From Escherichia coli (lineage in GTDB: Bacteria; Pseudomonadota; Gammaproteobacteria; Enterobacterales; Enterobacteriaceae), in the NCBI RefSeq assembly GCF_011045215.1, contig NZ_CP049201.1: a stretch of 64,000 bases of DNA; one strand, given 5' to 3'. Position 1 is the first letter of the stretch; every line of letters starts with the position of its first letter. Of this stretch, positions 55,103 through 58,100 are shown piece by piece. A program made the position numbers.

Positions 55103-58100
55103 TGGCTCAGCGTATGCGCCATTTGCTTACATACGGGCTTAAACCCTAAGGGGCACCAGGCTGCATACGTTTTGCCAAATCTGTTCTCTGCTCATGATAA
55201 CGAAGAACCAGGATACAAGGTGAAAGAAGATCCTCAACGCTCAGGGGCGTAATGTTCCCTGTGTTTCATGCCCCCATCGTTTGTTGCTGTGGTGCCAGAC
55301 TTCCGAGGCACTTCCATGTCGTTTTGTTTTTGTCAGCATCATAAATGCGTCGGGACTGGTGAATGGAGATAAGCCGTTTTATTATCGGGATCAGCGAACA
55401 TACTCACAATGTCGGAATGTTTCTGAACTGAACAATAAGTTTTGTGCTGATTACAGTATGTGAAGGAGGTCAGGCACAATGAATCCTGCTTATATGCAAG
55501 CCTTGCAGATATCCCCCCACTTCCCCGCCAATATAACCAGGCGATTATTTCCTGGTGAGCTTGCATTCCTCATTGAAGACTTATATGCAAGTACCCAACT
55601 TCCGCTGGAGCTCATTTTTAATACTGTACTGGCAACGCTCTCACTCTCCTGTCAGTCACTGGTTGACGTTGTTCATCCTCACACCAACATGCCGGAACCC
55701 TGCTCACTTTATCTGTTGGCAATCGCAGAGCCAGGCGCGGGAAAAACAACGATAAACAGACTGGTGATGAACCCCTGTTACGAATTTGCTGATCGACTCA
55801 TTCAACAATACGAAGAGAGAAACAAAGATTATAAGACTGAACTACAGATCTGGAATACCCGGCAGAAAGCGCTTGCTGCCAATTTAAGAAAGGCTGTTAA
55901 CCGGGGGTATCCGGGGGAACAGGAAGAAGAGGCACTGCGTAATCACGAAAGAAATAAACCGACACGTCCGGTTCGACCGAATTTTATCTATGAAGATGTT
56001 TCGCTTAAAGCGCTTGTGGAAGGGCTCAATGAACATCCTGAGGTAGGGGTTATTTCTGATGAGGCGGTCACTTTTTTCAGAAGCTATCTGAAAAATTATC
56101 CGGGCCTGTTGAATAAAGCATGGAGTGGGCAACCGTTTGATTTTGGACGGGCTGACGAGAAATACCATATCACGCCACGACTGACATTTTCGTTAATGTC
56201 CCAGCCGGATGTCTTTACGAATTATATAAATAAAAATGACGTACTGGCGTGGGGAAGCGGATTTCTTTCCCGGTTTCTGTTCAGTCAGGTTGTAAGTTCT
56301 TCCTGGATACGTGATTATACGAGAGGCGAGTTCAGAACAATACCAACCCTGGAGAAATTTCATAAAAAGATTAACGGATTTCTGTTAAGCCATAACATTA
56401 ATTCCCCCGGCACGAGCACCGAAAGGAAGACATTAAAACTTGCGAAAAAAGCGTTGGGGGAGTGGCAGGAAAACCAGATTAAGATTGAAAGAAAAACGCT
56501 TGCAGGAGGGGAGTGGGAACACATCAGAGATATTGTGCTGAAAGCAGGTTCTAATATACTGAGGATAGCGGGTTTATTCACCTGCTATTGCTATAAAGAT
56601 GCTGAGGAAATTGAATCAATTGCGCTTTTTAAAGCTATGCATCTCATGGACTGGTATCTGGAGGAAGCGAGCACAATATTTTATCCCATGTCTGAACGAT
56701 GCCAGTTTGAACAGGATAGCCGTGAGCTGTATACATGGATTATGACCCGAATCAGACAGAATAACTGGTGTGCTATCAGGAAAACAGACATTGAAAGATA
56801 TGGTCCCAATCGTCTGAGAAGAGCAGAAAAACTTACACCTGTGCTCAATCAGTTAATCTGTCAGGGGTATTTATGTATCATCAGAATGCGAACGCATCAG
56901 ACACTTTATGTTTCTGTTCGTTATAATAATGGTTGCATCCCTCCTTTTGGCGCAATGTCTTACGAATCATTTGAGATTATTCCACCCGAGAATAGCCATA
57001 ATGCGAAAACATATCACGTTAATATTCCACCGGAATTAATTCCGCCATTTGCGTTACCTTTTTCAACCCATGGCTTATTTTGAAATAAACTAACACAGAT
57101 AAAACGAAAAAAATCAACCTTCATTCGAAGGTTGGTGGTAAGGCGTTTTGCATATCCCGCATCTGTGCAAATGTTCACCATCTATGGGGCATGAACGAAA
57201 ATTTCTCTGAAAAAATCGCTACGGTAGCAACAGTAGCAGCACATGCACTATATATGTGATTTGATTTTGTTTTCATAATGACCTGCTGTCAGAGTTGGTT
57301 GAATACAGGAGTGTGCGCACTGGTGGAAGAATGGCTTTCGTTTTTTATAAAAAGAAAGTGAACAGAAATGCTATTTTTAACATGTCTGAAGCTAATCATA
57401 TAACCATATTATGTGAGTTTTTATATATAACTTTTTTTGATTCTTGTCGTGATGAGTGCCGGCGTATATGACGATGTTGGTCTCTATTATGAATAATGAA
57501 TGGTTATCAGTCTGTTACTGGCAAGAGATGCTGTTCAGGTTTCAATGGGAGATTGAAGAAAAACGATTTGATCTTTTTCTGTAAGAGAATGTTTTTCTTA
57601 GGCTTGTATTCAGGACGTAGGATTTCTTATTTTTACTCATCAGATATGGATAATTTTAATTTAGGTTTATTACTATAATTAATATCTGTCTCTTTATTTT
57701 CTATCCATCTTTGTCATTCATCTCTCCTCTCTATCTTTACACATTCCATTACTATTATTTTCATCCAGTTATACTCACTCATGTCCTTCTCCAGTCTTCA
57801 CTGTCACTATTATAACAATATCCTCTCCATCCATATCTCAATCATGACGATTGTAACTCATATGATATTCAGGTGTATTCTCTACCATTCTACTGACAGA
57901 TATTCATCTGTTCTCATGTTCAGTGAGACAGTAATTGATTTTAATCTTGTCCGTCATGCGTTATCATTGTTTAACAATAATTGTTTATCTGAAGTGTTTT
58001 AACTATTCTGGTGAACATCAATTCTTCTGTCATCACTGATTAACTGAATGTTTACTCTTTGATAAGGTGTCTATGATTCCGTCATGTTTAACAGCGCAGG

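Follow-up and report, generated by a model that had tools for sequence, protein, structure and literature searches.

A widespread Escherichia coli island backbone with a probable rut-type leader that follows a previously undescribed promoter-like element

What is the role of a non-coding stretch that is almost free of G on one strand and lies upstream of a replication-type gene? The question is raised by a locus in 64,000 nt of Escherichia coli DNA (contig NZ_CP049201.1, assembly GCF_011045215.1; this whole stretch is called the window), where a gap of 1,589 nt separates a DUF3987/YfjI gene (55479-57083) from a gene encoding a Gp2-like, Rep-like protein of 188 amino acids (aa; 58673-59239, plus strand). 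Within this gap, a G-depleted and pyrimidine-rich tract of 168 nt was delimited on the plus strand at 57683-57850 (core 57689-57839, 5 G in 151 nt), beginning 3 nt past a conserved TATAAT-containing element. At a probability of about 40 %, we propose that the tract would be an untranslated and unstructured leader, serving an operon of Rep-like and AlpA-family genes as a loading site for Rho or as an attenuator.

Composition, coding potential and structure of the tract

The G depletion that the initial annotation had reported (about five G at 57690-57840) was borne out by counting: this interval contains A33, C47, G5 and T66 (57650-57960: A78, C72, G28, T133), and the core is the lowest-G of all 63,850 windows of 151 nt in the 64 kb (mean 40 G, standard deviation 7.5). 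The dominance of C and T and the strand asymmetry held equally, with a pyrimidine content of 75 % and a GC skew that falls to its minimum of -0.74 at 57700-57849. Against the composition of the local 1,589-nt non-coding DNA (17.4 % G), the binomial probability of at most 5 G in 151 nt is 9e-8; when the gap was shuffled 5,000 times, no shuffle gave any 151-nt window with 5 G or fewer (minimum reached: 8). The two longest G-free runs of the window (54 and 42 nt) lie inside the tract, and the C/G ratio of 23:1 at 57689-57766 is the highest for any 78 nt of the window, both strands considered.

These are features of rut (Rho utilization) sites. RhoTermPredict searches for a 78-nt window with C/G above 1 and cytosines every 11-13 nt, and a C/G of at least 3 occurs in only 37 of 4,494 validated K-12 predictions (PMC6407284). 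The tract combines a 78-nt stretch of 23 C and 1 G with five chains of 6 cytosines spaced by 11-13 nt. A Rho attenuator is proposed because the tract passes this sequence screen throughout and by a wide margin, and because its RNA is predicted to be unstructured and untranslated, as detailed below.

Variants of the tract were collected with the invariant block TTTAATTTAGGTTTATTACTATAATTAT, found at its 5' side in the E. coli loci, as search pattern in metagenome contigs, and the genome loci were added. From the 111 loci obtained, all with both anchors, 57 distinct tract sequences were recovered. They measure 74-231 nt, the G content of each is 1.8-5.6 %, and the highest C/G ratio reached over 78 nt lies between 5.5 and 44. 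The shortest variant (74 nt) is close to the minimum size of a rut site. In 111/111 loci, the strand poor in G is the one that reads as sense for the downstream operon.

The tract was rejected as coding sequence: internal open reading frames (ORFs) are intact in only 1-3 of 68 distinct variants, and insertions and deletions (indels) are not multiples of three. A 44-aa minus-strand "hypothetical protein", called by the annotation pipeline PGAP on an expanded 9-nt repeat, CCACCTTCT, is almost certainly spurious; apart from this ORF, the region is unannotated among the E. coli records listed. The earlier statement that about 1.6 kb lacks a convincing ORF thus stands for the tract, which holds no conserved ORF, and needs qualifying for the remainder of the gap, where two short conserved ORFs were found.

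RNA folding of the plus strand of the tract gave -2.6 kcal/mol per 150 nt (z -0.67), versus -24.4 and -28.6 for the flanks, and the minus strand gave -9.1 kcal/mol (z -1.15); the fold does not surpass that of shuffled sequence. No Rfam match was found at E<=1 in 56500-59500. The initial annotation had offered a structured RNA as one explanation, and these values leave it unsupported. A structured non-coding RNA or riboswitch-like element would suit a long non-coding region beside a regulated gene; it is almost inconceivable here, given the folds, the Rfam result and the unconserved primary sequence of the tract. In the adjacent conserved region of about 300 nt 3' of the tract, to which the covariation test (Alifold) was applied, no useful covariation was obtained, and only 3 of 60 pairs had any compensatory change.

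Other skewed stretches of the window were recorded. Those at 12110-12293 (intergenic) and 51628-51782 (inside a 376-aa ORF without Pfam match) are C-poor and A-rich, and were rejected as tracts of the same kind. The largest C-minus-G difference for 78 nt in the 64 kb is at 46132-46209 (C35, G5), which, like both A-rich stretches, is unlike the studied tract.

The promoter-like element and its leaders across genera

The element ATGGATAATTTTAATTTAGGTTTATTACTATAATTA (57646-57682, plus strand) forms the 5' boundary of the conserved module. Its TATAAT hexamer (57674-57679) is a candidate -10, from which a transcription start near 57686 is predicted. The element is present once in the window, and of the 13 genome loci of E. 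coli retrieved by BLAST, 11 have its 28-nt core unchanged. The hexamer reads TATAAT or TATTAT in the 4/4 E. coli variants displayed and in 7/9 distant loci, and the most conserved bases are those of the spacer directly 5' of it. A conserved -10 without a consensus -35, next to a spacer that is the best conserved part, suggests a promoter that depends on a regulator. No sigma-70-like promoter was found near the Gp2-like gene by consensus and weight-matrix scans, which are uninformative in the AT-rich DNA of this region. A 22-nt inverted repeat (57646-57667 / 58168-58189, 86 % complementary) brackets 500 nt including the tract. An invertible switch of the fimS type was rejected: when 57668-58167 was inverted in the query, none of 1,463 matching records (1,461 genomes) covered it to 80 % or more.

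The strongest point for Rho action comes from the comparison across genera. Homologs of the Gp2-like protein (38-59 % identity) were found in Enterobacter, Klebsiella, Citrobacter, Salmonella, Serratia, Xenorhabdus and a second E. coli lineage. In these distant homologs, just 128-254 nt lie upstream of the gene, beginning with the same element: the arrangement TTAATTTRGGTTWATTAA-TATAAT-TAA..CACTCCCTTTTT was aligned in register upstream of the Gp2-like genes of the six other genera. Past +30, the leaders fall into seven families that are mutually unalignable, and in all seven C outnumbers G on the sense strand (C/G 1.4-3.3; sign test for seven independent families, by our calculation, about 0.016). 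The 200 nt 5' of the element have G at or above C in 9/9 loci, and C and G are about equal in the gene bodies. The skew is thus conserved in related islands, from the 57/57 E. coli variants to the families of other genera. Because seven unalignable families share the excess of C after the same element, the E. coli tract is best described from these alignments as the extreme, expanded form of a family-wide C-over-G leader that starts at the TATAAT element.

Two upstream regions were rejected as like cases. The one preceding the first Gp2 gene of the window (52950-53576) is G/T-rich, with the opposite skew, and does not contain the conserved element; that preceding yfjJ in K-12 resembles the element faintly at most. 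The first Gp2 gene itself (53577-54308, 243 aa) has a clear PF11726 match and is preceded by about 1.5 kb in which ORFs are largely absent.

The element could also belong to an origin of replication, a reading that we regard as unlikely: the HUH Rep-like protein would nick or bind at the element, and the G-poor strand would provide a structure-free single-strand zone, an enhancer or an iteron field, for loading of helicase or Rep. Such a role would be in keeping with the HUH and YxxK motifs retained by the Gp2-like protein, its REP_ORF2-G2P match, and the DUF3987 helicase-like gene upstream in the window. The element is moreover AT-rich, partly palindromic (TTAATT-N5-AATTAA in several genera), and fixed in side and orientation across genera. 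The origin of the Ff phages is likewise intergenic, upstream of gene II, with an AT-rich enhancer. The tract itself fits an origin poorly. Neither a binding tract, as the initial annotation had proposed, nor an iteron field is supported by its content: no motif recurs beyond what composition predicts (self-match z -0.2 to 2.4), 7-mer neighbourhood counts lie within the dinucleotide-shuffle distribution in 6/6 variants, and Tandem Repeats Finder gave no head-to-tail tandem repeats in the window or in locus L004. Candidate iterons or binding arrays picked by eye (TCTTTAC, TATTCACTC and the Cox-box-like TGTCTTTAC) were not significant against dinucleotide shuffles and were rejected; the P4 iteron TGTTCACC, with 2 copies in the non-coding region and 6 in the window (2.3 +/- 1.6 expected), was called chance level. 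Spacing is irregular, copy content varies threefold, and the tract is not more AT-rich than its flanks. Furthermore, it persists without the DUF3987 gene, the palindrome is not retained in E. coli, and a nick site needs no exact TATAAT.

Several observations weigh against a Rho-dependent leader. The element lacks a recognisable consensus -35 in the consensus and weight-matrix scans; no consensus pause element (GGN8YG) is present within 57840-58010; and T (44 %) exceeds C (31 %) in the tract, with G at about 3 %. Conservation is also lowest in the tract and indels are most frequent there: 91 per 192 substitutions, versus 120 per 872 in the right flank. In one lineage, CCACCTTCT is repeated 3 times (L015) or 9 times (L018). 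About 14 % of the E. coli records cover less than 80 % of the 57500-58900 query, and both truncated copies that were inspected (O157:H7 86-24 and CFT073) are bounded by insertion sequences (IS) and have no tract. Within E. coli, changes polarised by minor allele go from A to G at 15 of 41 A sites, about the rate of the complementary T to C (30 of 78 T sites); 24 changes gain G and 3 lose it; and the spectra of high- and low-frequency polymorphisms are alike. A minimum spanning tree built from the 57 variants gave 110 T<->C and 27 A<->G changes; per site, the latter are in mild deficit (0.66 vs 0.98). Selection against G was non-significant in the spanning-tree spectrum, the polarised test and the frequency classes, all of which are underpowered. 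The G-poverty of the E. coli tract could therefore be plain inheritance from one ancestor.

In its full form, this argument makes the tract a functionless, slippage-prone spacer of low complexity, derived from an ancestral G-free stretch that was expanded and reshuffled by slippage and unequal recombination. This is the main rival reading, which we think possible, although doubtful. The indel excess, the repeat (together with an 11-nt unit present in 2.3 copies in L006), the G-gaining changes at the complementary per-site rate, the absence of a selection signal in the spectra and the IS-truncated copies all suit it. It leaves unexplained why the seven unalignable families of other genera have C over G directly after the element, and why rearrangement junctions (described below) stop 5' of the element and never fall in the tract. 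No variant shorter than 74 nt was found among the 111 loci, internal repetition is at composition expectation in most variants, and an array old enough to lose its repeats should have gained G too. Decay, the remaining suggestion of the initial annotation, is possible for the expansion in E. coli, given its many indels, its variable-copy repeat and the lack of detectable selection against G; decay does not account for the family-wide excess of C over G. The copies of CCACCTTCT, 3 and 9 in number, lie in the near-identical loci L015 (4033-4209) and L018 (4033-4263), respectively.

The module, its junctions and its small ORFs

The region is present in about 1,430-1,590 of 5,426 complete E. coli genomes, and the module (element, leader, Gp2-like HUH gene and AlpA-family gene) in about 29 % (1,584/5,426). 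The closest match was 96.7 % identical (strain C5, NZ_CP010122), and most copies were 70-86 % identical; in 1,371 of 1,586 records, 80 % or more of 57500-58900 is covered at a single place. The full module is also carried in ST131, with a tract variant of 92 nt. The block TTTAATTTAGGTTTATTACTAT can serve to recognise strains with the locus. Block and tract together were found on 12 E. coli plasmids and, outside E. coli genomes, in 1 Enterobacteriaceae metagenome-assembled genome among species-representative genomes, and are thus essentially confined to E. coli. Literature searches on the flanking genes and on the sequence itself returned nothing on this region.

The tract is assigned to the downstream Gp2-like module, rather than to the DUF3987 gene, because its upstream neighbour varies while the downstream order is constant. 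Elsewhere, the genes 5' of it include a TIR-domain gene, dsdA, IS3, IS256, an H-NS gene fragment and a sugar kinase gene, and the tract is present where the DUF3987 gene is absent. On the 3' side, non-coding DNA of about 800 nt leads to the Gp2-like gene, after which come a gene of about 190 aa and the AlpA-family gene; this order holds in all genome loci with annotation extending far enough. In K-12 CP4-57, yfjI and yfjJ are 150 bp apart, and the long gap is therefore not general to yfjI-yfjJ pairs.

The left junctions fall into six classes, all located in 57624-57655, directly 5' of the element, and none within the tract. Upstream neighbours differ in the five junction classes that were inspected (TIR gene, H-NS fragment, IS256, sugar kinase gene and IS3). 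This 32-nt hot spot (loci L006, L008 and L014-L018) adjoins cargo that includes ireA/IS256 and pseudouridine and sugar-kinase genes, and is the edge between variable cargo and the fixed island backbone. Such clustering would be expected of a unit whose functional parts begin, at the 5' end, with the element. In the distant relatives, an AlpA gene lies upstream of the element, unlike in E. coli, and the AlpA-element-Gp2 unit appears to head a cargo slot in other genera. In four of these loci (L009, L011, L012 and L141), defence-type cargo comes directly after the Gp2-like gene (type I restriction-modification, OLD/UvrD-like, helicase/DUF6361).

Between the tract and an upstream ORF, a conserved non-coding region (57851-58608, plus strand) occurs in the E. 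coli lineage only and would form the rest of a leader of about 1 kb. Column identity is 0.8-0.99 to the right of the tract and 0.64-0.70 within it. The comparison of variants gave no consistently conserved ORF in 57851-58608, and showed indels there of 4, 13 and 14 nt. At about 57908-57931, a conserved hairpin of 8 bp, for which no covariation was seen, could be a pause site.

The region is followed by the first of the two short ORFs, the upstream ORF (uORF) of 23 aa, MSESINSLTALKTSLTFRSHQHA (58609-58680, plus strand). Its stop codon and the start codon of the Gp2-like gene overlap. Of 68 distinct variants, 61 have the uORF intact, and 3 of the 4 substitutions in the alignment were synonymous (read by eye). 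The uORF lies within a hairpin at about 58576-58664 (inverted arms 58579-58599 / 58641-58661; -26.5 kcal/mol, z -2.07), the 3' arm of which extends to the ribosome-binding site, and translation of the Gp2-like gene appears to be coupled to it.

The Gp2-like protein (YagK/YfjJ, REP_ORF2-G2P) bears the signature of an HUH single-strand endonuclease. Its Pfam matches (PF23343, E 2e-5; PF11726, E 8e-5) are both slightly below the curated cut-offs, and its HUH and YxxK motifs place it in the HUH Rep/Gp2 family. Residues H86, H88, Y156 and K159 are invariant in homologs down to 23 % identity, and HUH and Y156xxK159 are shared even with the 243-aa paralog at 53577-54308; the protein is probably an active single-strand endonuclease. 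Some sources name its relatives "rolling circle replication-associated protein". The retention of these motifs and the apparent coupling to the uORF would fit a tightly controlled replication-type gene. Downstream, at 60141-60374 (plus strand), lies a gene for a 77-aa helix-turn-helix protein of the AlpA family (Pfam Phage_AlpA, E 1.2e-10).

The second short ORF, of 33 aa, MKTKSNHIYSACAATVATVAIFSEKFSFMPHRW, is unannotated and lies on the minus strand at 57175-57276, followed by a good intrinsic terminator at 57134-57105 (minus strand). Its length is kept in 11 of 14 distinct versions, and in one variant the loop of the terminator stem is inverted. The predicted product has a hydrophobic core and could be a small membrane protein or a toxin-like peptide.

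The terminator bears on a minus-strand function of the tract, in which a purine-rich and C-free RNA would act as a sponge for CsrA (GGA) or Hfq (ARN), or would form a stable R-loop. Purine-rich RNA forms unusually stable hybrids with pyrimidine-rich DNA, promoter-like minus-strand sites are present in the conserved right region (one of them, 58033->58005, is conserved), and each CCACCTTCT unit adds one GGA. We nevertheless judge a minus-strand function to be very improbable. GGA occurs 9 times (5.8 +/- 1.9 expected; 8 % of shuffles reach 9 or more), and the skew tracks the sense strand of the operon across genera. The sole minus-strand terminator is explained by the adjacent 33-aa ORF and is missing where the left flank differs. 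Two specific forms were rejected: a CsrA sponge resembling CsrB/CsrC (GGA not enriched and no Rfam match) and a long minus-strand RNA ending at 57134-57105, since the 33-aa ORF accounts for the terminator.

A proposed Rho-controlled leader and its known counterparts

For the Rho-dependent leader, the following sequence of events is proposed. The element would act as promoter, and the plus strand would be transcribed from near 57686. The tract would then make up the initial 75-230 nt of the long leader, itself untranslated, of an operon that begins with the HUH Rep-like gene and includes the AlpA-family regulator. This RNA, C-rich, nearly G-free, unstructured and free of ribosomes, would be rut-like, and the leader would serve as a Rho-dependent attenuator or insulator with default termination ahead of the Rep-like and AlpA genes. 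Both transcripts begun at the element and read-through from an upstream cargo gene would be terminated, and expression would require protection of the leader or a termination-resistant RNA polymerase. As an improbable extension, by analogy, the AlpA-family or the HUH protein might bind the -35/-10 spacer of this default-off switch, so that a termination-resistant polymerase would cross the Rho-loading leader and turn on the Rep-like gene.

Rho is known for its role in silencing foreign DNA, and a Rho-controlled leader here would tie that role to a specific cis element and give a handle on the silencing of island replication and excision genes. If the extended switch were true, replication or excision of the island would depend on escape from Rho, and antitermination of the Q/AlpA type would be extended to Rho-dependent attenuators and to the backbones of E. 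coli pathogenicity islands. The module is the fixed backbone beside variable cargo, examples of which are a TIR-domain gene, the D-serine operon, ireA and pap. If the tract were merely an inherited spacer, the element and the two small ORFs would remain unannotated features worth recording.

Four groups of known systems were compared with the locus. In SaPI and phage-inducible chromosomal islands (PICI), the primase/helicase gene is directly followed by an origin in which iterons flank an AT-rich stretch; P4 has ori and crr with TGTTCACC iterons. The locus is similar in that, in the window, the non-coding stretch lies directly 3' of the DUF3987 helicase-like gene; it differs in that no iterons were found and that the tract is linked to the downstream gene, not to the DUF3987 gene.

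Leader-peptide coupling is known from plasmid rep genes (tap/repA of R1; the repY/repZ or repB leader of IncI/IncB). The 23-aa uORF, with its stop codon overlapping the Rep-like start codon within a hairpin that reaches the ribosome-binding site, is alike. This likeness concerns 58576-58680 and not the tract, no antisense RNA was identified, and the Rep-like protein of the locus is of the HUH type, unrelated to RepA.

At promoters controlled by lambda-type Q or by Pseudomonas aeruginosa AlpA, a regulator bound between -35 and -10 makes the polymerase termination-resistant (PMC7969949, PMC9371919). The conserved spacer beside TATAAT, the AlpA-family gene of the module and the long leader with likely termination signals are shared features. 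Unlike these promoters, the element does not contain the P. aeruginosa AlpA motif GGGACG-N5-GGTA; that AlpA is about twice the length of the 77-aa protein (residues are numbered to at least 142, PMC9371919), and its system bypasses an intrinsic terminator. By analogy, antitermination of the Q/AlpA type is thus a lead only as to how the switch might be opened.

The closest counterparts of the proposed leader are the Rho-dependent attenuators in the leaders of E. coli rho and tna, of topAI-yjhQ, and of Salmonella mgtA and corA. The tract departs from their rut sites in its unusually low G (3 %) and unusually high T (44 %), in its variable length of 74-231 nt with a variable-copy repeat, and in having no consensus pause element downstream. 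In common with rut sites, it offers at least 70-80 nt of C-rich, G-poor, unstructured and ribosome-free RNA on the sense strand upstream of a gene, and it keeps its composition rather than its sequence, with C/G ratios far over the thresholds; a rut-type leader behind the promoter-like element of this island backbone is thus probable from sequence comparison.

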